Positions 2,769-62,815 of a stretch of DNA of 64,000 bases are shown one piece after another. The translations under genes were made by a program, and so were the position numbers. Below the pieces are notes generated by a model. That model had not been told where the DNA came from. It made no database searches and was given only the letters and a program-made list of their open reading frames with translations. Source of the DNA: Acidobacteriota bacterium (GTDB lineage: Bacteria > Acidobacteriota > Vicinamibacteria > Vicinamibacterales > 2-12-FULL-66-21); assembly GCA_046735335.1 (NCBI GenBank), contig JBKPTE010000004.1, positions 6,406 through 70,405 on the forward strand, given 5' to 3'. Each line of letters starts with the position of its first letter. Position 1 is the first letter of the stretch.

Positions 2769-2948
2769 ATGCGAACGAACGGCCGCAGGGTCGCGGGCGT
2801 GAGTCCTGCATTCGTGTCCGTGGTCGGAGGACTGGCGGTATTCGGCGCGTCTGGCGTCATCCTCGGTCCACTCGCCGTCACGATTACCCTCGCACTGTTG
2901 GAGATCTCGCGAGTGAGAACGTCCAGACGTGCTCCTGGCGCGATATGA
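2769..2948 (+). pseudogene. C-terminal remnant of an AI-2E (PerM-like) family transporter
   Basis: 59-codon frame reading ...VSPAFVSVVGGLAVFGASGVILGPLAVTITLALLEISR..., which matches the conserved last transmembrane helix of AI-2E transporters. No upstream body of the gene is present. Confidence 0.4.
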
Positions 2949-3029
2949 ACCTCCAACGCGCTCGCGAATGGCAGGTGACGGACGCTCCAGTGCTCAGAAC
3001 TCCGATGAGTGCGTGCCCGGGAAGTACAA

Positions 3030-5546
3030 ATGCCGCCAATCGCTGAGGCGTCACGTCTCCTCCCGGAGCCGCTCCGGCGTCTGGAGGTCCTCGCGCTCGA
3101 CTTGCACTGGTCGTGGAACCACGCAGGCGATGCGATCTGGAAGCGACTCGACGAAGAATTGTGGGGGCGCACTCAGAATCCGTGGCTTCTGCTCCAACAT
3201 GTGCCGTTCGAGCGCCTTGAACGTCTGGCCAAGGACGCGAACTTCCTCAGCGATCTCGAGACCCTCGAGGAGTCTCGCGCCCGGTATCGCGCGACTCCGC
3301 CGTGGCGCCCGGCAGACGCTACGAACCTGCCGCGTGTCGCGTACTTCAGCATGGAGTTCGGCCTGCACGAGGCGCTTCCGCTGTACGCGGGCGGGCTCGG
3401 GGTTCTCGCGGGGGACTACTTGAAGACGGCGAGCGACCTCGACATCCCGGTCATTGGCGTCGGCATCTTGTGGCAGCAGGGGTACTTCCGCCAGGTGCTC
3501 GATGCAGCAGGATGGCAAACGGAGCTCTATCCGTTTAACGAACCCGCCAGTCTGCCCATACAACCCGTGGTGAGCGTGGGGGGAGAACGCCTTCGGATTC
3601 CCTTGACGTTCCCGGATCGAACGATTCTCCTCCGAGCGTGGCAGGTGACGGTTGGCCGCACGATGCTGTACCTGCTCGATAGCAACGATCCATTCAATGC
3701 TCCGGCCGACCGCGGCCTGACCAGCACGCTATACGGCGGGAGTTCCGAGGTCCGCTTGCTACAGGAAATCATCCTGGGGGTCGCCGGGTGGCGGCTCCTC
3801 GAGGCGCTCGACCTGAGGATTGAAGTCTGTCATCTCAACGAGGGCCACGCGGCGTTCGTGGTGATTGAGCGAACGCGAGGCTTCATGGAACAGCATCGCG
3901 TAACCTTTCGTGAAGGACTATGGGCCACGCGCGCGGGAAATGTGTTCACGACTCATACGGCGGTGCCGGCCGGCTTCGACCGCTTTCCGGCCGACGACAT
4001 CCACAAGTTTCGGCCCTACTTTGATGAATATGTCCGAGGGCTCGGACTCTCTTGGCCGGAGCTGTTGGCGCTCGGACGCCGCGATCCCCACAACGACAAT
4101 GAACCATTCAACATGGCCTGGCTGGCCATGCGCGGATGTTCATGGGTCAACGGCGTCAGCCAACTGCACGGTGCCGTGAGCCGCCGACTGTTCGCCGAGT
4201 TGTTTCCACGCTGGCCGGAACCGGAAGTTCCGGTCAGCTACGTGACGAACGGCGTGCACGTGCCGTCGTGGGATTCGCCCTGGACCGACGAATTGTGGAC
4301 GCGCGCGGCCGGCAAGGAGCGTTGGCGCGGTGACGTGTCGGCGCTGACCGCGAACATTCTCGAACTGTCGGACGAGGACTTCTGGATCCTGCTCACTCGC
4401 GAGCGCGAAGATCTCGTACGGTATGCGCGCGAGCGGCTATTCCGGAAGCTGGCGCGGCACGGAAGCATGGACGAGGCCGAGAGAATCGCACGAGGAGTGC
4501 TCGATCCCGATGCATTGACGTTGGGCTTTGCTCGACGGTTCGCCGCGTACAAACGACCCACCCTGCTACTCAGAGACTCGGCTCGCCTGCTGCGCCTACT
4601 CAATAGCCAACAGCGTCCCGTTCAGCTGGTCATTGCGGGCAAAGCGCATCCACGCGACGAAGAAGGCAAGCACCTGATCCAGCAATGGGCGCAGTTCGCC
4701 GCCCAGGCGGAGGCACGGGCTCGCGTCGTATTTCTCGACGACTATGACATGCGCCTGGCCACCGAGCTTGTCCAGGGCGTCGACGTCTGGATCAACACAC
4801 CGCGGCGACCGTGGGAGGCTAGCGGCACGAGCGGCATGAAGGTTCTCGTAAACGGCGGCCTCAACCTGTCGACCCTCGACGGCTGGTGGTCAGAAGCCTT
4901 CGCGGCAGACTACGGTTGGGCGCTCGGCGACAGGATCGAGAAGCCTGACGACGACGAGCAGGAGGCCGCGCAACTCTACTCACTGCTCGAAGAGGAGATC
5001 GTCCCCGCATTCTACGAGCGCGACGCCGAAGGCCTTCCGCGGCGATGGATCGCACGAATGCGCGCGAGCATGTCCGCGCTCGCGCCCCGGTTCAGTAGCG
5101 TGCGAATGCTGCAGGAATACGTCGAGACGGCGTACATGCCGAGCGCAACATCGTACAAACGGCGCACAGCCGAAGCGGCCGTCGTCGCTCAGACGATCGA
5201 GCGGTGGGCGCGACATCTCGAGCAGCACTGGACCGACATCCGTTTTGGAGAGATCACAGAGACCGAAGACAGCGGGCGCTTCATTCTGTCGGTGCCAGTG
5301 CTTCTCGGGAAGATCACGCCCGAAGACGTTCAAGTGGAACTGTATGCGGATCCGGAGAATGCGAACACTGCCTTCGTTCAGCAGATGCACCCCATCGCAT
5401 CGATCGCGGGTCACGTCAACGCGTTCATCTATAGCACGACGGTCGAGACCGTCCGGCCGGCTTGGAACTTCACGCCGAGGGTCGTCCCTTTTCATCCCGA
5501 TGCCCGGATCCCTATCGAATTGCCGCTCATCGCGTGGCAGCGCTGA
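3030..5546 (+). CDS. glgP: alpha-glucan phosphorylase (GT35, alpha-glucan family)
   Basis: ORF 3009..5546. The N-terminal block YFSMEFGLHEALPLYAGGLGVLAGDYLKTASDLDIPVIGVGILWQQGYF and the length (~840 aa) are typical of the family. The start is ATG 3030 or GTG 3009. Confidence 0.9.
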   Translation: MPPIAEASRLLPEPLRRLEVLALDLHWSWNHAGDAIWKRLDEELWGRTQNPWLLLQHVPFERLERLAKDANFLSDLETLEESRARYRATPPWRPADATNLPRVAYFSMEFGLHEALPLYAGGLGVLAGDYLKTASDLDIPVIGVGILWQQGYFRQVLDAAGWQTELYPFNEPASLPIQPVVSVGGERLRIPLTFPDRTILLRAWQVTVGRTMLYLLDSNDPFNAPADRGLTSTLYGGSSEVRLLQEIILGVAGWRLLEALDLRIEVCHLNEGHAAFVVIERTRGFMEQHRVTFREGLWATRAGNVFTTHTAVPAGFDRFPADDIHKFRPYFDEYVRGLGLSWPELLALGRRDPHNDNEPFNMAWLAMRGCSWVNGVSQLHGAVSRRLFAELFPRWPEPEVPVSYVTNGVHVPSWDSPWTDELWTRAAGKERWRGDVSALTANILELSDEDFWILLTREREDLVRYARERLFRKLARHGSMDEAERIARGVLDPDALTLGFARRFAAYKRPTLLLRDSARLLRLLNSQQRPVQLVIAGKAHPRDEEGKHLIQQWAQFAAQAEARARVVFLDDYDMRLATELVQGVDVWINTPRRPWEASGTSGMKVLVNGGLNLSTLDGWWSEAFAADYGWALGDRIEKPDDDEQEAAQLYSLLEEEIVPAFYERDAEGLPRRWIARMRASMSALAPRFSSVRMLQEYVETAYMPSATSYKRRTAEAAVVAQTIERWARHLEQHWTDIRFGEITETEDSGRFILSVPVLLGKITPEDVQVELYADPENANTAFVQQMHPIASIAGHVNAFIYSTTVETVRPAWNFTPRVVPFHPDARIPIELPLIAWQR

Positions 5547-5675
5547 CCGGTCACCAGCTCAGCGCATGCCGCGTCGCCGGGTCTCGGCGATCGCGTCGAG
5601 GACGGACGGATCGAAACGATCGTCGCGCGCGATGGTGCCGTCGTAGTCCAAGCCAGGACGGTGAGTGTCACCGTG

Positions 5676-6277: not shown

Positions 6278-6718
6278 CTAGCCTGCGTTCTTGATCGTGA
6301 GAACGTCGACGACCTTCGCGGCCATCTCCTGGTCGACATTCAGAAGCACGCGCAATTCGTCGGCGAATCGCTGCTCGTTCGTCGTCAACCGCCCGTCCGA
6401 CAGCATCAGATCGACGGCAACCGCGAATGCTGTGGCTCGGAGCTCCGTCGGAACGGCGGTGGCGGCTGCGCTGACGACACCTTGGATGCCCTGCTGCTTG
6501 ATGCGCTCGGCGACGGTGGTGAAGATGCCGTGCCGCGCCTCGTAACTGGAGCCGCGGAAGAGCTTCATGGCGCCGACGACATGCTCGATCTGGTTTGCCT
6601 CATGTGGCGATACCGACCCGTCGGATCGGGCGCTGGCGAGGAGGAGGCACACGAACGCTTCAGGGGGCGAAAAAGCAATGGCGCCGGCCAGCTCGGCTGG
6701 TGCGGTCTGGTTGGTCAT
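6278..6718 (-). CDS. TerB-like (tellurite-resistance TerB fold) protein
   Basis: ORF 6278..6787. Start chosen at ATG 6718 behind GGAGG. The C-terminal pattern AFAVAVDLMLSDGRLTTNEQRFADEL is typical of TerB-type domains. Confidence 0.6.
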   Translation of the reverse strand: MTNQTAPAELAGAIAFSPPEAFVCLLLASARSDGSVSPHEANQIEHVVGAMKLFRGSSYEARHGIFTTVAERIKQQGIQGVVSAAATAVPTELRATAFAVAVDLMLSDGRLTTNEQRFADELRVLLNVDQEMAAKVVDVLTIKNAG

Positions 6719-7324
6719 GGCAACCTCCACTAGGAATGCGTTCAGCGACAGCGGTGACGCAGTGATCGTCGAAAATGCACGCGCCACGCCAGCGCCGCCT
6801 TAGCGAGTAACGCCGGAATGCGCGACCCTGTGTCCGCCGGCTGGGGCTCCGCCAGATTCACGACGAAAGACCATCTTTCAAACTGAAAGGCCTCGTGGCC
6901 TGGACGGCGCATCAATGCTGAACGGATCCAGCGGGCACCGGTCCTTCCCGGTGAAGGACTGCTGGGAACCCGTCAGGAGGCGGTGACTCGGCGGCGAAGT
7001 CCCGTGATTCCTGTCCCGGGAGTTCGGGTGCGGGAATTTTTCCCACACCGAACGGTGGGATACTGCGCGGAATCGGCGCAACCTATCGAGTGAGCTTCGA
7101 GCGTGTCCAGCGGAGCCGTTCGGGCCGCATCTTCGTAGACCCGACGGCGCAGCCGTGCCGCCACTTACGGCGTCTGGTTCGCTCGTTGCTTGACGACATT
7201 TCGAGCGCAGTCCCGCGTTTTGGGTTGCGAGCGACACGGCTTCGACGCTCACCCCGCACAGGTCCGCAGCGTTCCGCAGGCGCATCGCCAGCGGCGGTGT
7301 TGGACGGAAAGAGAGCGGAACATC

Positions 7325-8185
7325 ATGTCATTGCGAACGTATCAATGGCCCCGACTGGTCATCCTCAAACCCAGTGCCACCGTCTTCGAAGCGGCCCGGG
7401 CGCTCGACAACAACCAGGTCGGCGCCGTCGTGGTACAGCATCAAGGTCGAGCGATCGGGATCGTCACGGATCGCGATCTGACGGTGCGGGTCATCGGCCA
7501 GGGGCTCGATCCGCAGACCACGACGCTCGCCACGGTGATGTCCAACGAGGTAGTCACGTTACCGCTCGATGCGAGCCGGACCGAGGCGCTGCGCCTCATG
7601 CAGGATCGGCGCATCCGGCGGATTCCGCTCGTCGAAGACGGCGCGGTCGTCGGCGTCGTGACGCTGGACGACCTGCTGGCCGACGAAGCGGCGCCGCTGA
7701 CGGACTTCGCCGACGTCGTGCGAGCACAGATTGGCGAAGGCGGACCGATGGCGCCCACGAGACTCGAGATGCAAGCGGCGAAGCGGCGGGCCTCGCGGCT
7801 CGACGCCAGCTACCGGCGGTTGATGAACGAGTTCCGCACCGAGTCGGCGTTGTCATCGATTGAACAGGCCGACAGCGGGTTCCTCGTCATCCTCTCCGCC
7901 TTGGTGCGCCGCCTCACGGCAGACGAGGCGAAGGATTTGATCGCGCAGCTGCCGTTGCGAATCGGGGAACGGCTGCAATCGTTGCCTGCCGGTCCTGACA
8001 AGACGATCACCGAAGCGGCCATCGTGGCCGAGTTGGCCCGTCGTCTCGGCGTCACGCCTCCACGTGCGCGAGAGGTGCTCGACGCTGCGGTGCGGACGTT
8101 GGACGCGAACGTGAGCGCTGGGCAGATGCAGGACATCCGCCATCAGCTGCCGAAGGAGCTGAGAGCCGTATTCGCGCACGCGTAG
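7325..8185 (+). CDS. CBS-pair domain protein fused to a DUF2267-like C-terminal domain
   Basis: ORF 7190..8185, with the ATG at 7325. It has two CBS motifs (GIVTDRDL..., GVVTLDDLL) and then a helical domain ending in QLPKELRAVF, typical of DUF2267. Confidence 0.8.
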   Translation: MSLRTYQWPRLVILKPSATVFEAARALDNNQVGAVVVQHQGRAIGIVTDRDLTVRVIGQGLDPQTTTLATVMSNEVVTLPLDASRTEALRLMQDRRIRRIPLVEDGAVVGVVTLDDLLADEAAPLTDFADVVRAQIGEGGPMAPTRLEMQAAKRRASRLDASYRRLMNEFRTESALSSIEQADSGFLVILSALVRRLTADEAKDLIAQLPLRIGERLQSLPAGPDKTITEAAIVAELARRLGVTPPRAREVLDAAVRTLDANVSAGQMQDIRHQLPKELRAVFAHA

Positions 8186-8247
8186 GTCGCGAACACGCTG
8201 CATCTACTGACGCGTGCGATCGGGAAGCGTAGACCATCCCAAGGACG

Positions 8248-8664
8248 ATGACGATGGCAAGCAATGCGAAGCGCGTTCGTGCGAAACCTGGGAAGAAATT
8301 GGAGGTGGACGAGGCTCTGATTGCCCTGTTCATCGGGGCGATGAATGCGAACGGCCATGTCGCGCGCGAGGAACTTGCTCGCGCGCATCATCTGATCTGG
8401 TCCACGCGCCGGTTTCGCCGCGAGTCAGGCGAGACGGTGGGCCGTCTGATCGATCGCATGAAACGAGTGCTCGAAGGGCAGGACGCGCCGACAGTGATCG
8501 ACAGGGCCGCGAAGGCGGTGCCGGCGAGGTTGCGGCAGTCGGCCTTCGCCGTCGTCGCCGATCTGCTGAGGCCGCCGGTGCCCGTAAGTGATCGCGGCAC
8601 ATTAGGAGGTCTGACACAATTTCTGACACAATTCGGGTTTCCGGGCTCATCCACTCGCCCGTAA
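8248..8664 (+). CDS. TerB-like protein, apparently 3'-truncated and read through into foreign, AT-richer DNA
   Basis: It is similar to the 6278..6718 paralog up to ...SAFAVVADLL (about nt 8577). The tail RPPVPVSDRGTLGGLTQFLTQFGFPGSSTRP has no counterpart in the paralog. Confidence 0.5.
   Translation: MTMASNAKRVRAKPGKKLEVDEALIALFIGAMNANGHVAREELARAHHLIWSTRRFRRESGETVGRLIDRMKRVLEGQDAPTVIDRAAKAVPARLRQSAFAVVADLLRPPVPVSDRGTLGGLTQFLTQFGFPGSSTRP
8611..8634. repeat. tandem 12-bp duplication (ctgacacaattt / ctgacacaattc)
   Basis: Read directly from the sequence. It encodes LTQF-LTQF in the aberrant tail of the TerB-like ORF. Confidence 0.9.
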
Positions 8665-8684
8665 ACAATTGATTCGAAAGACAC

Positions 8685-8728
8685 GGAGAGATGTCCGAGT
8701 GGTTGAAGGAGCACGCTTGGAAAGCGCA
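8685..8728 (+). pseudogene. 5' half of a tRNA-Ser(GGA) gene (acceptor 5' strand, D-arm, anticodon stem-loop only)
   Basis: GGAGAGA-TG-TCC-GAGTGGTTGAA-GGA-G-CACGC-TTGGAAA-GCG matches the bacterial tRNA-Ser layout up to 3 nt past the anticodon loop. After that there is no variable arm, no T-arm (GGTTCGAATCC-like) and no TCTCTCC acceptor 3' strand. Confidence 0.6.
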
Positions 8729-8805
8729 GCTCTCGGAAGTCAGGCTGCTGCCCAGGCGAACTCCAAATCCAGATGGTTGTACGCCCCCGCAACCAAAATT
8801 TCGCG

Positions 8806-8838
8806 AAGGGCCACGGCTTTTGGTCGTGGCCCTTTTGC
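8806..8838 (+). terminator. rho-independent terminator hairpin
   Basis: GGGCCACG-gcttttggt-CGTGGCCC (8-bp GC stem) is followed by TTTTG. Confidence 0.6.
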
Positions 8839-8867
8839 CTTGTACGGCCGGCACGAGAAGGTGCGAC

Positions 8868-9317
8868 TTGGAAGACGAATCGCTCGTCGAGGCGTTCGAA
8901 CGGGCCGAGATCTCGGAGTATCAGTTCTCCCACGTCGAGCACGTGCGCGTCGCCTGGTGGTATCTGTCGCATCATCCCTTCGTCGAGGCCCGTGACCGCT
9001 TCAGCGAGGCGCTGCGGCGGTTCGCGGCGTCGAAGGGGAAGGCGGAGCGGTATCACGAGACAATCACGGTGGCGTACCTGCTGGTCATCGCGCACCGGAT
9101 CCAGCAGACACCCGCGTTGATCTGGTCCGTATTTGCGGACGCCCATGCGGACCTTCTCTCGCACACGCCGCCGATCCTCGCGCGCTACTATTCGGACGAA
9201 ACGCTGATATCGGAGCGGGCCACGAGGGAGTTCGTGCTGCCGGACCGCGCGGCGCTGCCGGTGTCCTCGGATGGTGGACCACCGGGGGCCTGCGGCACGG
9301 CTGTTGTGCCATGCTGA
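8868..9317 (+). CDS. hypothetical protein (about 149 aa)
   Basis: This is the in-frame part of ORF 8691..9317. The first plausible start is TTG 8868, behind GAGAAGG. The sequence is non-biased and protein-like (EISEYQFSHVEHVRVAWWYLSHHPF...YHETITVAYLLVIAH...), but I do not recognise a family. Confidence 0.5.
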   Translation: MEDESLVEAFERAEISEYQFSHVEHVRVAWWYLSHHPFVEARDRFSEALRRFAASKGKAERYHETITVAYLLVIAHRIQQTPALIWSVFADAHADLLSHTPPILARYYSDETLISERATREFVLPDRAALPVSSDGGPPGACGTAVVPC

Positions 9318-9349
9318 CTCGGTCTGGACCGAGTTGACGTGGGGCGTGC

Positions 9350-10478
9350 CTGCGACCGAAGGAGCGCACCGACACCGATGCCGCGAGTCGCAGCCGTCTC
9401 GAGTTCATGAGCGGTCTCGCCCGACGCGATGCGCGCCGCGGTTCCGACGGAGGCGTACTGCTGGCGAACGAGTTCGAGCGCCTTCGCCGACCAGGGCATC
9501 AATGCGCAATCGAGGCACACCCAATCGGCGTTGAAGTGCTCCCAGAATTCGGACCGATCCAGCGCGGTTCGAAAGGAAGCGACAGCTCGCGTCCGAGCGC
9601 TGCACTCTCAAAGAGACGTCCCCTTCGCGTGTAGCAGATGCCGTTTTCCGCCTCGAGGACTCCGAACCGCTGGCGAGGCGCCTCCTCGTTGCGGCAGACG
9701 ATGAGGATCGCGCGTGAGCCCATGTGCTTCTGCTCGACGACTACCTGGCTGACGCCGTTCGTGCGGCAGTACGAAAACGGCTCCGCCGGATGCTCCAGAA
9801 GCCCTTCGCGCTTGCTCGTCTCGCTCGGCGACATCGTCGGCGGCAGTTAGATCAGCCACTTTGGATTCACCGCAAAGCGGCTCATGACCTCGAGGGCCGC
9901 CGCGGCGTTCTCCTCTCGAATCGTGATGTTCCGGTGCAGTCGCGTTTCGACGAGACGCTTACCGCGCACGTCGTCGATGTCGAGCAGATCGTCCTTGGCC
10001 TGTTGCGCGCTCAGTGGCGCGACAGCAGGAGGTACAAGGAACAGGCGAGCCGGCTCCGCACACGTGGCCGGCGCCCGCATGGAGATCAGCTCCTTTTCGG
10101 GCCACCGCAAGGCCGTGAGGCGTCCGCCGAACACGCATCCGCTGTCGATGTTAATCGTGCGATTCAGCCACCCGGGTTCGGGGATTGGCGTGTGGCCATA
10201 CCCGACGGCGGCACCGCCACGATATTCGGATGCCCAGTTGTAGCGAACGGGCAGGCCGAATTCGTCCGTCTCGCGAGTCGTCTCGCCGAACAAGGCGAAG
10301 TCTCTGACCGTTGCGGAGCCCCCTGCATCTCCGCCTTCATGCCGGCATGCGCGACGACCAGCCGGCCGTCGTTGAAGACGTAGTGGCTGACGAGACGGTC
10401 GACGAAATCCCGGACGGCCGTGCGGAACTCCGGCGACTGGAGATCCAGTTCAACGAGCGTTCGAATCGCCCGAGTAAA
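9350..10478 (-). pseudogene. pnkp: internal fragment of polynucleotide kinase-phosphatase/ligase Pnkp (phosphatase C-half plus ligase N-half), truncated at both ends and disrupted
   Basis: Pieces in three frames carry Pnkp hallmarks: SPEFRTAVRDFVDRLVSHYVFNDGRLVVAHAGM; GYGHTPIPEPGWLNRTINIDSGCVFGG; VVVEQKHMGSRAILIV (ligase lysine motif); DWVCLDCALMPWSAKA. There is a frameshift at the C5 run 10319-10323, an in-frame TAA at 9847-9849 where WLI-Y-LPPTMSP is expected, and a second frameshift near 9575-9590. The kinase domain and the C-terminus are absent. Confidence 0.8.
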
Positions 10479-10831
10479 CTATGATCCGGCGTGCCCGAGA
10501 TCGAGCCTACGTGCGCTCCGCTGGACGTTGCGTCCTGAACGATTGACCTCACCCGATCCCGACCGGAGCCATCCAGTCGATGGCTATCGGCGGTCGCGTC
10601 CATCGGCCGCGGACGCGAGTTGCCCGGTATCCGTCAGGCGCGGCGAACGGTCGTCGGCGCATTGCGGCGAGGATCGAGATGCGGCGGTTCTCGCCATGAC
10701 GAACCGGACACACACGGAGACATCGCAGTACACATGACCGACAGAGCCCGCGTGCAATCCATCGACATCCCTGGCGAACTGCGGGCGGCCGTCGGCTCGT
10801 GCATCGACCCCGGGCAGCAGGTCGCCGACGC

Positions 10832-13800
10832 ATGAACCGGGCAGGGCTGACCGGCGCGCGGGCACTGGGAACAGGCGAAGGCCTGCTGAGCATCGAGTTG
10901 CTCGAGGAGCACGCCCGTCGGCTCGCCGCGCTGCTCTCGATCGCATCCGGCCGGCGCCGCAGCGGCAGCGGCCGCGCCCATTTGCGGCGCCTCAAGGGAC
11001 ACATGCGCGCACTGCGCGAGGTCTATGCGCAGCTGGCGGAGGACGGCCGCAACGAGAAGATGTCACCGGCGGCGGAATGGCTGGTCGACAACTTCCACAT
11101 CATCTCGGCCGCCGCGCGCGATATTCATCACGATCTGCCGTCGGCGTTCTTCCGGCGGCTCCCCCACGTCGCGACCGACGAGTTCGCCGGACTTCCTCGG
11201 ATCCATGCGCTGGCTCTCGAGCTCATCGGATCGAGCGCCGGTCGTCTCGACGCGCAGCGACTGCAGCGGTTCATCAGCGCCTTCCAGGCGGTGACCCCGC
11301 TCACCATCGGCGAGCTGTGGGCGTGGCCGAGCGCGTTGAAACTGGCGCTGCTCGATCATCTGCGCGCACGCGGCGACGTCCTCGCCGCCACTCGCGTCCA
11401 CCGTGTCGCGGCCGATCGCCTGGCGGCGGCCGTCGAAGTGACACCGGCGGGATCACGAGTGTGGCCGTCAGACATCCATCACGCGTTCGTCACCCGCCTG
11501 CTGCAGCGTACGCGCACGCTCGGGGTCCTCGCCTCGGGACTCCACCAGGAGCTCGAAGCGGCGCTGACCGCACGCGGACAGACCGTCGAAGACGCGATTC
11601 GTGCCGAAGGCCAGCACGAAGCCGTCGAACAGGCGGGAGTCGCCAATCTGATCGGCAGCCTCCGCCTGATCTCCACGTTCGACTGGAGCGAGTTCTTCGA
11701 GAGCGTGAGCCTCGTCGAACAGGTGCTGCAGCGCGATCCAGCGGGCGTGTACGGCCGCATGGACTTCCGCAGCCGCGATCGGTACCGCCACGCGGTCGAA
11801 GAGCTCGCGGTACCGACCGGTGAAGGCCAGTTGCTGCTCGCGCTGAAGAGCATCGAGCGCGCCCGACAGGCGCACACGCGCACTCCGGATGCGCGGGCAT
11901 CGCACGTCGGCTATCACCTGATCGGCGGCGGCCGGCGCGTGTTCGAGCGCAGCGTCGCCTGGCATCCGGATCTGCGACACCGCGTGCGCCGGTTGTTCTT
12001 CGCATGGGCCACGCCGGGGTACCTGGGTACGATTGCCGCGGGGACCGTGCTCCTCGCATCGCTCGCCGCTGCAGTCGCTTGGTGGCACGGCTGGCGTGGC
12101 GCGTCGCTCGTGTTCGTCGCCCTGCTGGCGGCGGTACCGGCCAGCGAACTGGTCATCCAACTCCTGCAGCGCGTGATCAGCGCGCTGATTCCGCCGCGGC
12201 GGTTGCCACGGTTCGACCTCACGACGGTGGGCCCGGCCGCGCGCACGATGGTCATCGTTCCGACGCTGCTCGACAGCGTCGCGCGGGTCGAGGATCTGCT
12301 CGCGCACCTCGAGGTGCAGGCGCTCGGCAATCTCGATCCGCACATCCATTTCGCGATTCTGAGCGACTTTCCGGACGCACCGACCGAGACGATGCCGAAC
12401 GACGCCGCGATCCTCGACGCTGTGCGCGCAGGGATCGCCGCGCTCAACGCACGGCACGCCGACGACTCCGCCGGAGGGTTCTTCCTTTTCCACCGGCTGC
12501 GACAGTGGAACGATCGCGAACGGTTGTGGATGGGGTGGGAACGCAAACGCGGAAAGATCGAGGAATTCAACCGGCTGCTGCGCGGCGCCACCGATACGAG
12601 CTTCGTCGTGTGGGAGGGGGACCTGAGCGTCCTGCCGCAGGTCAAGTACTGCATCACGCTCGACAGCGACACGCGCCTGCCGCGCGGTGTCGCGCGCGAG
12701 CTGATTGGCGTCATCTCGCACCCGCTCAACCGCCCCACGTTCGATCCACGGGTCGGTCGCGTCACCGAAGGCTACGGCGTCCTCCAGCCGCGCGTCAGCG
12801 TTACGTTCACGAGCGCTGCCAGCTCGCTCTTCGCGCGACTCTATTCGGGACACACCGGCGTCGATCCCTACACCACAGCGGTCTCCGACACGTATCAGGA
12901 CCTCTTCGCCGAAGGGATCTTCACCGGCAAAGGGCTGTACGACGTCGACGCGTTCATCACCGCGCTCCAGGGATCCGTTCCCGAGAATGCGCTGCTCTCG
13001 CATGACCTCTTCGAGGGGCTCTACGCGCGTGTGGCGCTCGTGTCCGACGTCGAGCTGGTCGACGAGTATCCGTCGAGCGTGCTGTCGCACGCGCGACGGC
13101 AGCACCGCTGGATCCGCGGGGACTGGCAGATCCTTTTCTGGCTGTTTCCGTTCGTCCCGTCACGGCACGGCATCGTCCGCAACCCGCTGCCGATCATCGG
13201 CCGCTGGAAGATTCTCGACAACCTGCGCCGCAGCCTGGTGGCGCCGATGCTCCTGCTGCTCCTGATTGCCGGATGGACGGTGCTGCCCGGTCCGCGCTGG
13301 ATCTGGACGCTGGCGGTGATCGGGGTGACCGCGTCCCAGCTCCTGCCCGTCGTCGCGCGCCTGCTGGTCGGCCCCGGTCGGGCGCAGTCGTTCCCGGTCT
13401 TCCTTCGCAACGTCCGTCGCGACGCGGCGACGGCGGTGGCGCAGATTCTCCTGAGCGTCACGTTCCTCGCCTTCAGTGCGTTCGAGACCGCGCATGCGGT
13501 TGGGGTCACCGTCGCACGGCTCGCGTTCACGCGCCGGCGGCTGTTGGAATGGGAGACGGCGGCCACGGTCGCCGCCCGTGCCGCGGGACTCGTCGGTCAG
13601 CGGCTGCGCCGGTTCGCGGCCGAAATGGTGGCCAGCCCGGTGATCGCCCTCGTTGTGGCCGCCGTCATCGTGGTGCACGATCGCGACGCGCTGGTGATCG
13701 CGGCGCCGTTCCTCGTCCTCTGGTCGATCGCGCCGGCGGTCGCCTACTGGCTCAGCGTCCCGGTCGGCGCTCGGGTGCGGCCGTTGAACGAACGCGAACG

Positions 13801-16800
13801 GAGAGTCCTGCGCACGACGGCGCGCAAGACCTGGCGCTATTTCGACACGTTCGTCACCGAGGCGGACGGATGGCTTGCGCCCGACAACTTCCAGGAATAC
13901 GGCGACGTCCCGCAGTTGGCGCGTCGCACATCGCCGACCAATATCGGCATGAGTCTGCTGGCGACACTCGCGGCGCACGATCTCGGCTATCTGACCACCA
14001 GTGAGTTGATCGAGCGATTGGGTGCAACGATCCGGACGCTCGAAGGTCTCGAGCGCTACGAGGGACACTTCCTGAACTGGTACGACACCGCGACCCGTGC
14101 CCCACTGAACCCCCGCTATGTCTCGACGGTGGACAGCGGCAATCTCGCCGGCGCGCTGATCGCCGTCGCCCAGGGCCTGCTCCAGATCGAGCACCAGCCG
14201 CAAACCATCGGGCAGCGGCTGGAGGGCCTCGCCGATACCGCGGACCTGCTCGCCGCGGTGTCGTCCACGACCGTCGATGCGGCGACTGGCCAGGCGCTCG
14301 GAGAGCTCAATCGTCTGGCTCGCTCGATCGCCGAGGCGGCGCGATCGAGTGAAGCACTCCACGCCGTTGCCGCGATCGAAGCGCTGGCGAAGCAGCTCGT
14401 TGCCGCCATCGCGGCGATCGAGCGGCGGGCGGCGCACCCGGAGCCCACCGTGGCGTATTGGTCGAGCGCGGTGCGGCACGCCGTGGAGCAATGGAGGAAC
14501 GAGCCGGCAGTGCCGATCGATTCGCTGCGGGCGCTGGCCAGCCGTGCCTCGGCACTTGCCGACGCGATGAAGTTCGAGTTCCTGTACGACCGGCGGCGCC
14601 GTATCTTCTCCATCGGGTATCGCCTTGCCGATCACAACGGCGCCGGTCGACTGGACGCATCGTTCTACGACCTGCTGGCGTCCGAGGCGCGCCTGGCGAG
14701 CTTCGTCGCCATCGCCAAGGGCGACGTCCCACAGCACCACTGGTTCCATCTCGGCCGGCTGGTCACCAACGTCGATGGGCGCGCCGCGCTGATGTCGTGG
14801 GGCGGCACGATGTTCGAGTACCTGATGCCGCAGCTACTGCTGCGGAACTTCCCCGGGACGCTGCTCGATCAGAGCTGCCGCGCCAGCGTCCGACGACAGA
14901 TCGAGTACGGGCGGCAGCGCCGCGTCCCGTGGGGGATTTCGGAGTGCGCTTACGCGTTTACCGATCGCGAGGGGCACTATCAGTACCGCGCATTCGGCGT
15001 GCCCGGCCTGGGACTGAAGCGCGGGCTGTCCACCGACCTGGTGATCGCGCCGTATGCGACCGCTCTGGCCAGCCTGGTCACGCCGCCGGCAGCCGTCAAG
15101 AATCTCGAACGGCTGGGCGAGCTCGGCCTCGACGGGCAGTTTGGTTTCCACGAGGCGATCGACTACACGCCGCGCAGCCGTGACGTCGACACGCCTGGCG
15201 ACGCCCCGGTGCGTCCCGTCATCGTCCGCGCCTATTTCGCGCATCACCAGGGCATGTCGATCGTGGCGTTGGCGAACGTGATCTGCCACGACATCTTCGT
15301 CGACCGCTTTCACGCAGACCCGCGGGTGCAGGCAACGGAACCGCTGCTCCAGGAGCGCGTACCGCGCGAGGCGATCCTCTCCGAGCCGAGGCCGGCGGAG
15401 AGCACGACGGCGCCGCCATCGCTCCCAGTCTTTGCCTCGCGACGTTTCCGCTCGCCACACACCACCAACGTGCACACGCACTTCCTGTCGAACGGACGCT
15501 ATACCACCGCGGTCACCAACACCGGTGGTGGGTTCACCAGCTGGCGGGATCTCGCGATCACGCGTCGGCGCGACGACCGCACGTCGGATGCCGATGGACT
15601 GCACATCTACTTGCGCGACCCGTGGTCGGGAACTGTCTGGTCAGCCACGTATCAACCGGTATGTCGCGAGCCGGATCGGTTCGAGGCCACCTTCGACCTC
15701 GACGCGATCAAGTTCCGGCGACGCGACAACGATATCGAGACGCAGCTCCAGATCTGTGTGTCGTCGGAAGACGACGTCGATGTGCGGCGCCTGACGATCA
15801 CCAACCACAGCGCCCACACCCGCGAGATCGAGGTGACCAGCTACGCCGAGATCGTGCTCGGGCGCCCCGAAGACGATCTCGCCCATCCCGCGTTTGGAAA
15901 GCTGTTCGTCGAAACGGAGTTCGATCGGCAGAGCGCCGGCCTGCTGTTCCGCCGGCGGCCGCGGTCGACCGGCGAATCGCCGCTCGTCGCGTTCCACGTG
16001 CTCGGCGTCGACGGGCCGCGCCTCGGTGGCGCCGTCGAATGGGAAACCGACCGCGCCCGTTTCATCGGCCGCGGGCGCACGGCCGCCGATCCGATCGTGC
16101 TCGATGGTCGCGCGCTGTCCGGTACCACCGGCGCCGTGCTCGATCCGATCGGCGCCCTTCGCGAGCGCATACGACTGGCACCCGGCGCCAGCGTCAGGGT
16201 GGCTTTTGCCACCGGCGTCGCCGAGGGTCGCGACGCCGCGCTCGCGCTGGCGCGGAAGTATCGCGACGGCAGCGCTGCCGCGCGCGCCTTCTCGATGGCC
16301 TTCACCCACGTGCACATCACGCTGCAGCAACTCGGCTTCAGCGACGAGCAGGCCATGCTCTATGATCGTCTGGCCTCGCGCGTGTTCGGATCCGACGCGT
16401 CGCGGAGCAGCCCGGTGGATCTCGCGCGCAACACGCTCGGGCAGCAGAACCTGTGGGGCCACGGCATCTCCGGCGATCTGCCGATCCTTCTGCTTCGTGT
16501 CGACGCCGTCGACGCGCTGCCGCTCGTGCGCCAGGTGCTGATGGCGCAGGAGTACTGGCGGGTCAAAGGGCTGCGCGGAGACGTGGTCATCGTCAACGAG
16601 CACGCGGCGGACTATCTGGACGAGATGCAGCAGTTGCTCGCGCGGCTGATCCAGGAGCCGCCGTGGGCCGGCTGGAGCGGCAAGCCTGGCGGCGTGTTCC
16701 TGTTGCGCACGGATGCGATGGCTGATGTCGACCGGCACCTGCTGTCGGCAGTCGCGCGTGTAGTGCTGCGCGGCGATTTCGGCGATCTCGTGTCGCAGCT

Positions 16801-23640: not shown

Positions 23641-23727
23641 GGATTCCCTTCCTGCGCGGGGCGTCGCCGCCTCCATGCCGAAAATCGAACGCGACATGCT
23701 CAGCCTCCATGAGCCCGGAGGACACTC

Positions 23728-23982: not shown

Positions 23983-24001
23983 CGTAGTGGGTTTGACCGT
24001 G

Positions 24002-31343: not shown

Positions 31344-31359
31344 GGCCGGTCCGAGCGCG

Positions 31360-34099: not shown

Positions 34100-34106
34100 G
34101 CCGGCC

Positions 34107-51044: not shown

Positions 51045-54000
51045 GGGCCAGGAGATTCTCTCCCTGACGCGTAACGGGCGAGCCGCTCGCACAGCCCCCG
51101 GTCCGACCTTCGCCGCGCGAAGGTCCCGGCCAACGTTCACTCATGTTCTTGTAGAGGGACCATCGCTGATGAATGTCCTGCTGCGCGAGCGCGAGCAGCC
51201 GCCGCGCGTCTTCGGGCCTGGTCTGCGCGAGCATCCTGTAACGGGTCTCGTTGTAGGCGTAAGCCTCCAGCGGAATGCTCGGCGCCTGCGAATCCAGGAC
51301 GAACTCGGGAAGCTGCCGACCCGCTGCGGCGGGTCTGTACCGGTAGAGCGGCCAGTGCCCGCAATCGGCCGCGAGCTTCTGCTGGCGCATGCCCAGACGC
51401 ATGTCGATCCCGTGGGCGATGCAATGGCCGTAGGCGATGATCAGTGAAGGTCCGTCGTACGCCTCGGCCTCGACGAACGCATCCAGTGTCTGCTGGGCCG
51501 ACGCGCCCATCGCGATCTGGGCCACGTATACGTTCCCGTACGCGATGGCCATCAAACCCAGATCCTTCTTGCGGCTCTGCTTGCCGGCAGCCGCAAACTT
51601 CGCGACGCCCGCGCGCGGCGTGGCTTTCGACGCCTGGCCCCCGGTGTTCGAGTAGACCTCGGTGTCGAGCACCAGGATGTTGACGTTCCGTCCGGAGGCG
51701 ATCACGTGGTCGAGGCCGCCGTACCCGATGTCGTACGCCCAGCCGTCGCCGCCAACAATCCAGACGCTCTTGCGTACGAAGTGCGACGCAAGCGTGCGGA
51801 GCCGGCGGGCGCGGGGATCGTCGATTCCGTCGAGGGCGCGTTCGAGTGCCGTCACCCGCGTGCGTTGCGCATCCACCTCGTCGCTCGTCGCCTGCGATGC
51901 GTCAATGATCTCCGCGGCGAGGCCTGGCTCGAGATCGGGCGCAAGATCGCGAAGGAGCCGGTCGGCCTCTTCGCGATGGGCGTCCAGCGAGAGTCGGTAA
52001 CCCAGACCGAACTCTGCATTGTCCTCGAACAGAGAATTGGCCCATGCGGGTCCGCGCCCCTCCGCATTGATCGACCACGGCGTCGTCGGCAGGTTGCCGC
52101 CATAGATCGAGGAACAGCCGGTCGCATTCGCGACCAGCAGGCGGTCGCCGAAGAGTTGCGTGAGGAGGCGCAGGTACGGCGTCTCGCCGCAGCCGGCACA
52201 CGCTCCCGAGTACTCGAACAGCGGCGTGAGGTATTGAACTCCCCGCACGAGCGTTGCGTCGACGCGACCCGGCGCGCTGGCCGGCAGCGTCTCGAAAAAG
52301 GCAAGATTGCGGCGCTCGCGCTCCAGCAATGGCGACTTCGCTTCCATCTCGATTGCGCGGGCGGCTTCCGGTTCGCCGCTCCGGACCGGGCATACCTCCA
52401 CACAGAGCTCGCAGCCGGTGCAGTCTTCGACGGCGACCTGCAACGTGAACCGGCGATTGGGAAATCCTCGACCAACCAACGGCGCCGATGCGAACCCGTG
52501 GGGTGAGCGGGCCAGGAACGAGTCCTCGTACTGGCGAGCACGAATCGCCGCGTGCGGACACACCATCACGCAGTTGCCACACTGGATGCAGATCTCGGGT
52601 CTCCACACCGGCACCGTATCCGAGATGTTCCGCTTCTCCCAGCGCGAAGTGCCGGATGGGTACGTTCCGTCTGCCGGCAGGGCACTGACGGGAAGATCGT
52701 CGCCGCGCCCGGCGGCCATCACCGCAGTGACCTCCTTGACGAACGCGGGTGCGTCTTCGGAGACCAGGGCGGCGGCTTCGCGCGTGCTGCTCACCGCTGC
52801 GCCGAGTTGAACGGCGTGCAGGTTCTCGAGCGCACGATCGATGGCGGCAAAGTTCTTGTCGACGAGGTCGCCGCCCTTCCGGCCGTACGTCGCGACGACC
52901 GCTTCCTTGATTCGCGTGATCGCGTCGGCCCGAGGCAGCACGCCCGAAATGGCAAAGAAGCAGGTCTGCATGACCGTGTTGATCCGCCCCGGCATGCCGG
53001 CCTCGAGCGCCACACGGTCGGCATCGATGGCATACAGGCGTATGTGCTTGCGGATCAGCGTGTCCTGAACGGAAGCGGGCAGCTCGTCCCAGATCTCGTC
53101 GGGCCCGAACACGGTGTTGAGCAGGAACACCGCGCCATCGACAGCCTCCCGCAGCATGTCGATCCGATCGACGAATTGAAACTGATGGCACGCGATGAAT
53201 TGCGCGCGCTGGACCAGGTATGTGGACCGAATCGGGCGCGGCCCGAAGCGCAAGTGCGACGTCGTTCGCGACCCGGATTTCTTGGAGTCGTAGACGAAGA
53301 AGCCCTGGGCGTACGCGGCCGTGTCCTCGCCGATGATCTTGATTGAGTTCTTGTTGGCTCCTACCGTCCCGTCCGACCCGAGGCCGTAGAAAATGCAGCC
53401 CACGACGTCCGGGCTCTCGATCACGAACTCCGGGTCGTACTCGAGGCTGGTGTGCGACAGATCATCACGGATGCCGACGGTGAAGTGGTTGGCCGGCGCT
53501 GGCGACGCCAGGTTGTCGAAGACGGCCTTGACCATGGCGGGCGTGAATTCCTTCGACCCGAGGCCGTATCGGCCGCCGACGATGCGGGGCAGCGCCGGGC
53601 GGCGGTTCGCGGCGACGGCCTCGGCGAAGGCTGCCACGACATCCAGGTACAGCGGCTCGCCGGACGCGCCCGGCTCCTTCGTTCGATCGAGCACCGCGAT
53701 CGTATTCGCCGTCGGCGGAATGGCGTCGACCAAATCAGCGGCCGAGAAAGGCCTGAACAGGTGCACCTGCACGAGACCGACCTTCTCGCCGCGCTCGTTC
53801 AGGTACGCGACGGTTTCGCGGGCGGTTTCGACGCCCGAGCCCATGAGCACGACCACGCGCTCCGCGTCAGGCGCGCCCGCGTAATCGAACAATTTGTACT
53901 GACGGCCGGTCAGCCCCGCGAAGCGGTCCATCGTCCGCTGCAGCTCCGCCGGCACCGCCGCATAGAACGTGTTCACCGTCTCGCGCGCCTGGAAGTACAC

Positions 54001-54672
54001 GTCCGGGTTCTGCGCCACGCCGCGGACGAACGGATGCTCCGGGTCCAGCGCGCGCCGGCGGTGCGCGAACACCAGCTCGTCATCGATCATCGCCTTCACC
54101 GCGTCGTCGGCGAGGATCTCTATCTTGCTGACTTCGTGAGACGTCCTGAACCCGTCGAAGAAGTGAACGAATGGAATGCGGGACGCGAGTGTCGCGCTGT
54201 GGGCGACGAGGGCCAGGTCGTGCGCCTCCTGCACCGAGCTCGAACAGAGCATGCCCCATCCGGTCATCCGCGCGGCCATCACGTCCGAGTGATCTCCGAA
54301 GATCGAAAGCGCCTGCGTAGCAAGGGCGCGCGCGGCCACATGGAAGACCGTCGGCGTGAGCTCCCCGGCGATCTTGAACATGTTCGGGATCATGAGGAGC
54401 AGGCCCTGCGATGCTGTGAACGTCGTCGTCAGCGCGCCGGTCTGCAGCGCGCCATGGATCGCGCCAGCGGCCCCTCCTTCGCTCTGCATCTCGACGACGT
54501 GCGGCACGCTGCCCCAGATGTTCTTGCGTCCTTCGGCCGCCCATTGGTCCGCCAGCTCGCCCATCGTGGAGGAGGGGGTGATCGGGTAGATCGCGCAGAT
54601 CTCATTCACGCGGTATGCGATCGAGGCTGCCGCCTCATTGCCGTCGAGCGTCTTGACGTGCGCGGGTGCCAT
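51022..54672 (-). CDS. nifJ: pyruvate:ferredoxin (flavodoxin) oxidoreductase, single-polypeptide type
   Basis: ORF 51022..55056 from ATG 54672 (1216 aa). It starts MAPAHVKTLDGNEAAASIAYRVNEICAIYPITPSS, carries ferredoxin motifs CIQCGNCVMVCP and CTGCELCVEVCP, and has the TPP motif GGDGWAYDIG. Confidence 0.9.
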   Translation of the reverse strand: MAPAHVKTLDGNEAAASIAYRVNEICAIYPITPSSTMGELADQWAAEGRKNIWGSVPHVVEMQSEGGAAGAIHGALQTGALTTTFTASQGLLLMIPNMFKIAGELTPTVFHVAARALATQALSIFGDHSDVMAARMTGWGMLCSSSVQEAHDLALVAHSATLASRIPFVHFFDGFRTSHEVSKIEILADDAVKAMIDDELVFAHRRRALDPEHPFVRGVAQNPDVYFQARETVNTFYAAVPAELQRTMDRFAGLTGRQYKLFDYAGAPDAERVVVLMGSGVETARETVAYLNERGEKVGLVQVHLFRPFSAADLVDAIPPTANTIAVLDRTKEPGASGEPLYLDVVAAFAEAVAANRRPALPRIVGGRYGLGSKEFTPAMVKAVFDNLASPAPANHFTVGIRDDLSHTSLEYDPEFVIESPDVVGCIFYGLGSDGTVGANKNSIKIIGEDTAAYAQGFFVYDSKKSGSRTTSHLRFGPRPIRSTYLVQRAQFIACHQFQFVDRIDMLREAVDGAVFLLNTVFGPDEIWDELPASVQDTLIRKHIRLYAIDADRVALEAGMPGRINTVMQTCFFAISGVLPRADAITRIKEAVVATYGRKGGDLVDKNFAAIDRALENLHAVQLGAAVSSTREAAALVSEDAPAFVKEVTAVMAAGRGDDLPVSALPADGTYPSGTSRWEKRNISDTVPVWRPEICIQCGNCVMVCPHAAIRARQYEDSFLARSPHGFASAPLVGRGFPNRRFTLQVAVEDCTGCELCVEVCPVRSGEPEAARAIEMEAKSPLLERERRNLAFFETLPASAPGRVDATLVRGVQYLTPLFEYSGACAGCGETPYLRLLTQLFGDRLLVANATGCSSIYGGNLPTTPWSINAEGRGPAWANSLFEDNAEFGLGYRLSLDAHREEADRLLRDLAPDLEPGLAAEIIDASQATSDEVDAQRTRVTALERALDGIDDPRARRLRTLASHFVRKSVWIVGGDGWAYDIGYGGLDHVIASGRNVNILVLDTEVYSNTGGQASKATPRAGVAKFAAAGKQSRKKDLGLMAIAYGNVYVAQIAMGASAQQTLDAFVEAEAYDGPSLIIAYGHCIAHGIDMRLGMRQQKLAADCGHWPLYRYRPAAAGRQLPEFVLDSQAPSIPLEAYAYNETRYRMLAQTRPEDARRLLALAQQDIHQRWSLYKNMSERWPGPSRGEGRTGGCASGSPVTRQGENLLAPTRAAAS

Positions 54673-54683
54673 GTGAGTGCCTG

Positions 54684-56541: not shown

Positions 56542-56758
56542 ATGTCCCGCATCCTCACGCTCCACGACTTCCTGCGCGACGCTCACGTTCCGTACGCAGT
56601 CGTGCCCCGCCGTCCGGCGTTCACAGCGCAGCAGGAAGCCGCCGCGACCCACATTCCGGCCCGCGGTGCCCGAACCCCCATCCCTTCTCCTCCTGGGCTC
56701 CGCGATCAGTTCCCTCGCGCTGGCGCGGCTTCGGCGCACGGGCGGCCGTGCGTCATGA
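56542..56758 (+). pseudogene. chimeric remnant: YbaK/aminoacyl-tRNA-editing-like N-terminus joined out of frame to a PEP-CTERM tail
   Basis: ATG 56542 follows AGGAGG and encodes MSRILTLHDFLRDAHVPYAVVPRRPAFTAQQEAAATHIPARG. From 56666 the +1 frame reads VPEPPSLLLLGSAISSLALARLRRTGGRAS-stop, a PEP-CTERM anchor. Confidence 0.5.
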
Positions 56759-61819: not shown

Positions 61820-61853
61820 AGACGTACGGGACCCGTCGCGTTAGAGTAGCGGG

Positions 61854-62438
61854 ATGGACGCGGCGCTCCCAGACGACCTTCAACAGCTGCAGGACGGCTT
61901 GGACGCGGCGGAGCGCGACGCGCGCGCGCTCATGGACGGTTTGACGGAGCGGCTCGGAGCCTGGCGGGCGCATTCTGGAGCGTGGAGCGTCGCGGAGTGT
62001 CTCGACCACATCGCGACGGCAAATCGCGTCTACCTCGCGCCAATGGAACCGTCCGCGGTCCGGGCGCGCGCCAGCGGCAGTCGCAGGCGCGGCGTTGCGC
62101 GTCCGGGCCTCGTCGGCGGCTGGTTCGTGCGCTATCTCGAGCCGCCGGTGAAGCTGAAGGGCAAGGCCCCGCGGAAGATCAGGCCGCGATCCGCGCCCGC
62201 GCTCGACGACGCGTACACCAGCTTTCTGGCGATGCAGGACGAGGTGCGCGCGTTCATCCGGAACTACGCGGAGATCGATCTCGCACGCGTCGCCTTTCCA
62301 AATCCATTCATCCGCGGCGTTCGCTTCAGCCTCGCGACGGGCCTGCACGTCATTGCAGCGCACGAACGGCGGCATCTCTGGCAGGCGTGGAGAGTCCGTC
62401 GAGCGGCGGAGCAATCGGCTGGAACGCAGCCGCTCTGA
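61854..62438 (+). CDS. DinB-family (DinB_2) protein
   Basis: Four-helix pattern WSVAECLDHIATANRVY ... HVIAAHERRHLWQA with His-containing metal-site motifs. Confidence 0.8.
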   Translation: MDAALPDDLQQLQDGLDAAERDARALMDGLTERLGAWRAHSGAWSVAECLDHIATANRVYLAPMEPSAVRARASGSRRRGVARPGLVGGWFVRYLEPPVKLKGKAPRKIRPRSAPALDDAYTSFLAMQDEVRAFIRNYAEIDLARVAFPNPFIRGVRFSLATGLHVIAAHERRHLWQAWRVRRAAEQSAGTQPL

Positions 62439-62526
62439 CGAGCAGCCACGGTCCGAGCGGAACCTCGAACGCGAGGATGGGCATCCAGACCGCCTGAGCG
62501 GCGCGTTGACGGCGGGCGTCATCGTA

Positions 62527-62815
62527 CTACTCCGATCGAAGCGCCTGCAGCACGTCGACGCGCGAGGCGCGAGCCGCCGGCAGCAACGAGGCAACAGCCG
62601 CGGCGGCCATGAGGATCGCGGTCCGCGAGCAGGTTCCTGGGCGCAGATCCGACCGCCAGGAGAATCCCGAACTCACGCGTCCGGGCGCTCACGGAGAACG
62701 CGAGCACGCCCGCAACGCCAACGACGGCGATGAGCAGCGCGATCCCGGCCAACCCGGAGAACACGAAAGCGTTCAGTCGCTCCGGCGACAGCACCTCGTC
62801 GCGGATCGAAGAACC
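62527..62815 (-). pseudogene. C-terminal fragment of an FtsX/MacB-like (ADOP-type) ABC permease, frameshifted
   Basis: ERLNAFVFSGLAGIALLIAVVGVAGVLAFSVSARTREFGILLAVGSAPRNLL then shifts frame to ...RTAILMAAAAVASLLPAARASRVDVLQALRSE-stop (stop at 62527-62529). Everything upstream of the last transmembrane bundle is missing. Confidence 0.65.

Follow-up and report, generated by a model that had tools for sequence, protein, structure and literature searches.

The 64-kb stretch of DNA analyzed here, referred to below as the window, is part of contig JBKPTE010000004.1 of an acidobacterium of the order Vicinamibacterales (guanine-plus-cytosine content, GC, ~65%) and carries, beside ~38 coding sequences (CDS) judged to be intact, remnants of ~10 protein-coding genes and of one tRNA gene, a remnant-to-CDS ratio of ~0.26, such that ~19% of its length is remnant or unassignable DNA. 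Very probably, the window is a zone of gene turnover within the accessory gene complement of a free-living soil bacterium, with deletional decay still ongoing. The lesions comprise segmental deletions of gene ends or interiors, insertions and deletions (indels) of 1–5 nucleotides (nt), and point substitutions (nonsense codons and the loss of a catalytic His), and a given gene can be at another stage of decay, or carry another lesion, from one strain to the next. By criteria like those of PGAP and Pseudofinder, under which a remnant covers less than ~65–75% of the intact family length, the Crp, protease, FtsX, TerB, AI-2E and DUF4132 pieces described below all derive from substantially longer families, and frameshifts or premature stops are found in the pnkp, histidine kinase, GG, DUF4132 and FtsX genes. 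The initial annotation had counted ~13 broken loci, and 10 of these 13 items, corresponding to 11 remnants, are borne out at the coordinates given; an eleventh, a YbaK/PEP-CTERM chimera, is weakly supported, and a "Cys-rich wreck" and a "transposase tail" are not supported. Genes were called with a codon-usage model trained on the longest open reading frames (ORFs), since the high GC content yields many spurious ones, and were annotated from Pfam and from the gene tables of matching public contigs; suspicious stretches were translated in six frames and scanned with Pfam, and the single pieces were then compared with homologues.

That the lesions exist in nature is demonstrated by other metagenomes. 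Exact-sequence look-ups of the TerB fragment and of the Crp half retrieved seven and 12 contigs, respectively, from metagenomes of the Joint Genome Institute (JGI), and contigs from at least 10 other JGI samples match the window at 99.4–99.97% identity across most breakpoints. Contigs L148–L157 together cover 6298–24434 at 99.4–99.97% identity and read through the breaks in the TerB and tRNA genes, the two ends of pnkp, the histidine kinase, the point where Crp is truncated and part of a stretch without genes. The junctions at ~8570, 8727, 9350, 10450, 21807, 22800, 31400 and 33840–33928 recur in these and other contigs (L081 and L161, described below); the lesions of TerB, tRNA, pnkp, kinase, Crp, protease, PD40 and GG are all present in independent sequence. 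Homopolymers are absent at the indel sites, and none of the nine indel polymorphisms among near-identical contigs falls within the 13.2 kb of intact CDS compared. Per kb, intact CDS have 3.3 variable sites, remnants 5.1 and DNA without genes 7.9, and the latter two classes combined differ from intact CDS (P = 0.0009). Roughly 10 point lesions are present in ~4.4 kb of remnants and none in the five long ORFs, ~20 kb in total. Decay is real because the same breaks recur in independent metagenomes and because sister strains hold alternative states of the same genes, and at the loci spanned by other contigs neither sequencing error nor chimeric assembly can account for the lesions. The initial annotation had argued for locus-specific decay, as opposed to uniform error, from the contrast between broken and intact genes and had named consensus errors or a chimeric contig as findings that would overturn it; the breakpoints are spanned by independent contigs, and decay is now strongly supported by evidence better than that contrast.

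Alternative states in sister lineages are seen in the adjacent GG and DUF4132 genes. The GG gene (33707–34099, plus strand) has, relative to the intact gene of the 92%-identical contig L160, two deletions, of 2 nt at 33840 and of 1 nt at 33928, that lead to a stop at 33854; both are also present in contig L081, which matches 31624–34167 at 99.65% identity with no gaps. Joining the three frame segments gives a reconstructed protein with 1759 matches of 76–95% identity over its full length; nearly all of the 120 best matches are 131 amino acids (aa) long, and the C-terminus of the family is an invariant LVGG. The family has no Pfam domain. Its AlphaFold model (predicted local distance difference test, pLDDT, 79.6) bears, in Foldseek, a weak likeness to the beta-grasp folds of ubiquitin, SUMO and MoaD (E ~0.006–0.03, probability up to 0.99, template modeling, TM, score 0.3–0.6), and from this model GG may be a ubiquitin-like protein that is paired with the DUF4132 protein. 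In the intact relatives L163 and L164 the GG gene is followed after 4 nt by an 823-aa DUF4132+DUF7737 gene. When mapped on this reference, the remnant in the window (34107–35613, plus strand) keeps residues 1–312 and 628–821 (506 of 823) with frameshifts at ~34975 and ~35485, and a deletion of ~945 nt took residues 313–627, the stretch that has the DUF4132 match in L160, so that 34107–35613 has no DUF4132 match left. The L160 gene keeps residues 1–31, 365–607 (with a stop) and 796–821 and lost 32–364 and 608–795. As the deletions in the window and in L160 are non-nested, the two lineages eroded this gene independently.

A comparable picture emerges for a PAS-HisKA-HATPase histidine kinase pseudogene (20942–22104, minus strand), identified by Pfam and by strain comparison. 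In the window its HisKA and HATPase_c domains are intact in one frame and the PAS part lies in another, due to a 1-nt deletion at 21807, and the phospho-acceptor His of the H-box is replaced by Pro (nt 21639). This haplotype, frameshift together with His-to-Pro, is also present in L153 and L155. L154 and L156 have one base more at 21807, linked to nearby single-nucleotide polymorphisms (SNPs), which restores the frame, and a 376-aa gene call from sample 3300045391 is of intact length; L154 itself carries a nonsense codon at nt 21175, in the ATPase domain. At least three allelic states of the kinase are therefore present in the natural population (intact, frameshift plus His loss, and nonsense), which suggests repeated independent inactivation.

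The remnant of pnkp, which encodes a polynucleotide kinase-phosphatase/ligase (9350–10442, minus strand; Pfam and direct reading), matches PNKP_ligase with 226 bits in two stretches that are in different frames. It has lost both ends, contains two frameshifts and an in-frame stop (9847–9849) within the conserved WLIYLPPT motif, and of its domains retains most of the ligase and a portion of the phosphatase. Here again strains differ, as L152 has Tyr at the position of the stop and no internal frameshift but another upstream junction, and L150 has a further deletion of 5 nt. Between this remnant and the tRNA half described next, a 149-aa ORF (8868–9317) with good codon usage, for which every matching contig has a gene call, has no Pfam match; it sits where the hen1 partner of pnkp might be expected on the other strand.

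On the far side of this ORF are two genes that lack their 3' ends. The first is a TerB-like gene (8248–8664, plus strand), the homology of which to its intact paralogue (6278–6787) stops at residue 107 (nt 8568); the paralogue has 41 residues more, whereas the final 31 codons of the truncated ORF are unrelated read-through. The remnant covers profile positions 2–55 of 118, and the identical 138-aa ORF is present on seven contigs from six samples. The second is the 5' half of a tRNA-Ser(GGA) (8685–8726, plus strand), in which acceptor arm, D arm and anticodon stem-loop are legible before unrelated sequence begins, with a terminator-like hairpin 3' of it at ~8800–8835. This assignment is based on direct reading, not on ARAGORN (with introns and relaxed thresholds) or an E-value search of Rfam, which returned no tRNA at 8685; in the window as a whole no complete tRNA gene was detected, and Rfam at gathering thresholds gave no match. 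L151 varies precisely at the tRNA junction (8724 G>A, an additional A at 8729). Neither the TerB C-terminus nor the 3' half of the tRNA was found in a search of the window, which rules out a simple insertion for these two breaks, since the missing halves are not elsewhere in the window.

A Crp/Fnr-type regulator is represented by its C-terminal half (22735–23202, plus strand; Pfam HTH_Crp_2 and homologue alignment), which keeps the dimerization helix and the helix-turn-helix (HTH), with HTH_Crp_2 as its sole domain, and lacks the N-terminal effector domain of ~110 residues. Nine homologues of ~240 aa align to it only from their residues 113–120 onward, and no frame upstream of it matches their N-termini. 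Regulators of the same Crp/Fnr subfamily occur within a few kb of giant glucan-synthase-like genes in many distant genomes, including Pseudomonas, Ramlibacter, Usitatibacter and others (loci L007, L016, L021, L030, L035, L043, L056, L058 and L060), and the remnant is possibly what is left of a regulator that once served the giant gene of this type in the window.

Two divergent remnants overlap head to head at their truncated starts. One is the C-terminal ~85 residues of a trypsin-family peptidase (31143–31421, minus strand), found by exhaustive HMMER search and assigned to Pfam Trypsin; it is the final part of proteins of 260–275 aa, the 5' two thirds having been lost, its serine motif is ADSGG, and it matches no PDB sequence. 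The other comprises the C-terminal blades of a PD40/TolB-like beta-propeller (31360–32097, plus strand; family alignment) and is also 5'-truncated, as the family consensus extends further upstream and is usually fused to more blades and to a Ser/Thr kinase. The PD40 piece is also present in L081, L159 and L161, and L161 has the same head-to-head junction with the protease. A related 151-kb contig, L162 (ENA ERZ25039588 contig_31890), has its Ser/Thr kinase-PD40 gene in three ORFs and an FtsX permease in pieces, a hint that genes are often fragmented in this way in these lineages, unless indel errors of that assembly are the cause.

The remaining remnants are short. The C-terminal ~59 codons of an AI-2E/PerM-family transporter (2769–2945, plus strand; ~85% lost at the 5' side) lie in a 430-nt gap between a DUF308 gene and a glycogen-phosphorylase-like gene; they are 75–76% identical to the C-termini of PF01594 (PerM-family) proteins, the Pfam match itself is weak (profile positions 294–324 of 327), and the tail is found elsewhere in one 49-aa ORF record (P0391). 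The last ~130 residues of an FtsX/MacB-type permease (62530–62791, minus strand), 5'-truncated, match residues 289–350 and 389–419 of the 419-aa permease 5xu1_M in two frames, with a frameshift near 62625. Between the truncated end of this remnant and a decarboxylase gene is a cluster of palindromes (62855–62985) that resembles repetitive extragenic palindromic (REP) elements and is made up of GCCGGGTCTnAGAGACCCGGCCTAC, a hairpin related to it (GGGCGGGCCTCTCAGGCCCGCC) and a 17-nt unit repeated 2.8 times in tandem. It is found nowhere else in the window and, by a repeat search of the window, is the sole repeated element near any breakpoint. The initial annotation had proposed that breakpoints be compared with insertion sequence (IS) and REP positions, and such a link holds for the FtsX breakpoint alone; Pfam and repeat searches of the window revealed neither an IS, a transposase or an integrase nor any long repeat. 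A candidate YbaK/ProX-like N-terminus and PEP-CTERM tail (56542–56755, plus strand) are in different frames, and both match weakly, the YbaK-like start (56542–56667) to residues 6–46 of 3op6_A with E = 0.18 and the tail (56651–56755) with E = 0.019.

Some of the remnants contain, or adjoin, abrupt switches to tracts that are 10–19% divergent or of other content. These are seen in L152 (9284–9903), L161 (31813 onward) and L160 (34200–35532), and such sharp boundaries indicate recombination or gene conversion, or mosaic contigs.

The intact genes include long ones. As the initial annotation had noted, five long ORFs are uninterrupted, and their main domain profiles in Pfam are matched end to end or nearly so: a glucan-synthase/phosphorylase-like giant of 2843 aa (10832–19363), pyruvate:ferredoxin oxidoreductase (PFOR; 51022–54672), a DUF7133/HEAT/cytochrome c protein (40143–43169), an ADP-forming acyl-CoA synthetase with a GNAT domain (44269–46848) and a glycogen-phosphorylase-like gene (3030–5546). 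The closest relatives of the giant gene are in Vicinamibacterales-labeled metagenome-assembled genomes (MAGs) at 69–72% identity and in one MAG at 77%, and several PD40 homologues also bear Vicinamibacterales names, which by itself makes an assignment to this order probable. The flanks of the giant gene have nothing in common with the window in 80 species-representative genomes, and those of the epoxide hydrolase gene are not syntenic in 67 metagenome loci, except in the near-identical strain L081; breakpoints cannot be defined by synteny because these flanks are shared with no relative. Exact-protein look-ups of the DNA ligase, the epoxide hydrolase and the ORF at 61854–62438 (tentatively DinB-like) gave no matches, and a local tblastn of the fragments against a subset of the collected loci was uninformative. 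A listed 400-aa ORF (27365–28567) is not a single gene: over its first ~175 codons it runs antisense to a DUF456 gene (27239–27718, minus strand), and the real gene within it encodes a 225-aa 3-keto-disaccharide hydrolase that starts at 27890.

Downstream of the Crp half, 2.6 kb (23203–25780; GC 59–64%) contain no detectable gene. Within 23.2–25.8 kb, six-frame Pfam, PHROGs, NCBIfam, Rfam (E-value mode), a promoter and terminator scan, blastn and tblastn against plasmids, and two scans against viral contigs were all negative, and there is no codon-usage signal. The two items of the initial annotation that were rejected as unsupported are located here, the "Cys-rich wreck" at 23183–23640 and the "transposase tail" at 25380–25611, neither of which has a match in Pfam (six frames), PHROGs, NCBIfam or plasmid tblastn and blastn searches. 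The stretch is ~99.5% conserved among strains and is the largest member of the no-gene class, which is the most polymorphic of the three classes compared above.

How dense the remnants are depends on the comparison. Among 10,832 chromosomes the median is 0.024 pseudogenes per CDS, and the medians for large non-conjugative plasmids are 0.15–0.27 (PMC11229322). The ratio in the window, one stretch of 64 kb, is ~10 times this chromosomal median, and the comparison is a generous one that flatters the window, as annotation pipelines skip tails of 50 codons, pseudogenes cluster, and a single window is compared. In a control with the same crude gene caller, run on 52 other loci each 18 kb long or more, the uncovered fraction was 0.22 in the window versus a median of ~0.12, and gaps of at least 400 nt numbered 2.34 per 10 kb, the highest value in the set, with several loci close to it. 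The density of remnants is high and in the upper tail, yet within the range of ordinary loci. Where the initial annotation called it "exceptional," this holds locally against the published median but is reduced to an upper-tail value by the coding-density control.

Decay of this kind would follow from relaxed selection on dispensable genes, which would then accumulate mutations without purifying selection while their neighbors remain constrained, and the remnants would persist if, in a lineage with a large genome, genes are inactivated faster than they are deleted. PAS kinases, Crp regulators, FtsX permeases, PD40 proteins and PEP-CTERM proteins belong to large and highly redundant families in Acidobacteria, and since most of the affected families are redundant there, relaxed selection on single copies fits. 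A single deletion across the shared upstream region probably took the 5' ends of both the protease and the PD40 genes, which is proposed because their truncated starts overlap head to head. No mobile element would be needed to account for the decay.

Several points weigh against this account or narrow it. The mechanism of each deletion would be one read from sequence, with an intact ancestor for comparison of microhomologies at hand only for the DUF4132 gene. The window spans 64 kb, over which a local and a genome-wide load look the same. Remnants alone do not differ significantly from intact CDS in polymorphism (P = 0.11), and the gene-less 2.6-kb stretch is left without explanation by decay. 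Some of the matching samples have consecutive JGI numbers and may stem from the same projects, so that they are independent assemblies and not necessarily independent sites. Finally, the Crp half is a clean 155-aa ORF, identical on 12 contigs except for one SNP in L155, and the PD40 piece is a clean ORF of 245 aa, and either might still be expressed or useful.

These last two cases lead to the alternative that survives best and overlaps with decay, namely that some fragments would be working short genes, such as an HTH-only Crp repressor, a short PD40 protein or a stand-alone kinase core, and this is rather doubtful. The Crp ORF does retain the dimerization helix and HTH without interruption, and short PD40 forms of similar length are present on long contigs (P0011 and P0031). 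However, P0011 is in L162 downstream of separate pieces of Pkinase and linker on the same strand and is a fragment there too. The ratio of nonsynonymous to synonymous substitution rates (dN/dS) for PD40 between the window and L161 is 0.23, as if selection were maintained, but this value was discarded, since all differences are in the one 300-nt tract, 19% divergent, that begins abruptly at 31813, and because that tract is a recombined or paralogous segment it is no measure of selection on the truncated gene. The kinase core is without its phospho-acceptor His, and in codon usage the kinase and PD40 remnants score about half as high as intact genes, with the Crp half somewhat above these two remnants.

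It is distinctly unlikely that the remnants derive instead from one or more mobile elements or genomic islands that inserted at the tRNA-Ser and then decayed. The tRNA fragment at 8685 is near the RNA-repair gene pnkp, a gene that is often horizontally transferred; GC is 2–5 points lower over 19.4–33 kb (59–64% versus 65–69% elsewhere), a modest difference, and the flanks of the giant and epoxide hydrolase genes lack synteny in any relative. Yet the window as a whole yielded no gene for an integrase, a transposase, phage functions or conjugation, and neither a six-frame Pfam search of 8200–10850 nor a Pfam search of nearly all called genes revealed an integrase or other recombinase near the tRNA. 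An integrase insertion normally leaves a duplicated 3' part, whereas here the 5' half of the tRNA was kept, and the window contains no direct repeat of the tRNA elsewhere, no second copy of it and no T-arm-like sequence in a tRNA context. Moreover, the remnants extend over 60 kb and are interleaved with ordinary metabolic genes.

Less probable still is that the whole genome is undergoing reductive evolution after a change of lifestyle or a bottleneck and that the window is typical of it, an explanation that carries little weight. The ratio of ~0.26 is within the range for decaying replicons (PMC11229322), and L162 also has fragmented kinase and FtsX genes. Against this, the window shows no IS expansion, its genes of up to 8.5 kb and most of its metabolic genes are intact, the coding-density control places it inside the ordinary range, and many soil metagenomes, the records soilH2 and soilL2 among them, contain the population.

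The explanation by consensus indel errors or a chimeric metagenome contig is almost certainly wrong, for although the window resembles metagenome-derived sequence (its closest species-representative genome is 77% identical in the giant gene), several of its lesions are single-base indels, and the sharply bounded tracts of L152, L160 and L161 are possibly assembly mosaics, the same indels and junctions are present in independent contigs from at least 10 other samples, the indels lie outside homopolymers and are absent as polymorphisms from the intact CDS, the deletion at 21807 is linked with nearby SNPs as a haplotype, and the lesions include nonsense codons, a catalytic His-to-Pro replacement and deletions of hundreds of bases.

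Ongoing decay in a turnover zone thus remains the preferred reading, and what makes it of interest is that a soil population has been caught in the middle of the process, with the same genes present across metagenomes in intact, singly hit and heavily eroded form. The usual assumption is that broken genes are lost fast from free-living bacteria that have large populations. It is conceivable, if unlikely, that a high remnant load is a lineage-wide trait of widespread soil Vicinamibacterales, in which inactivation would be frequent and deletion unusually slow, with a pseudogene fraction several times that assumed for free-living bacteria. The inactivation of accessory genes for sensing, regulation and transport would perhaps even be favored, because three states of the kinase co-exist and the same operon was eroded independently in sister lineages. 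Were the load to extend over the genome, it would have a bearing on the upkeep of large acidobacterial genomes, on the strength of deletion bias in slow-growing soil bacteria and on the trust to be placed in gene counts and metabolic predictions from soil MAGs, counts that are put in doubt because gene callers list several of the remnants as ordinary proteins.

Among known systems, the pseudogene-rich large non-conjugative plasmids (PMC11229322) have a similar ratio of remnants to CDS and segmental deletion as a major route of function loss. Unlike them, the window is without replication, partition or transfer genes and has PFOR and a glycogen-phosphorylase-like gene, and with central-metabolism genes present and none of those replicon functions, nothing marks it as a plasmid. 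Genomic islands linked to tRNA genes share with it a tRNA fragment at a breakpoint, a neighborhood of lower GC and the lack of synteny with relatives; unlike them it has no integrase and no flanking direct repeats and keeps the 5' and not the 3' half of the tRNA. Polymorphic loss-of-function alleles of sensor kinases and regulators are known in natural or evolving bacterial populations, and the histidine kinase with its three allelic states resembles these; it differs from them, and from classical phase variation, in that there is no hypermutable repeat at the site and no known phenotype or selective agent. The remaining comparison is with the erosion of bacterial pseudogenes in general, the subject, reportedly, of the work of Mira, Ochman and Moran on deletional bias and of that of Kuo and Ochman on pseudogene extinction. 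The lesion classes are the same, the genes affected are dispensable, and the pseudogenes are strain-specific and short-lived; what differs is the local density, ~10 times the chromosomal median, and the host, which is a free-living, high-GC soil bacterium and not a host-restricted one. Tools for detecting bacterial pseudogenes, such as Pseudofinder (PMC9336565), address this same process. Decay in the window is therefore a known process that is seen here at a locally high density and with unusually good evidence from the population.

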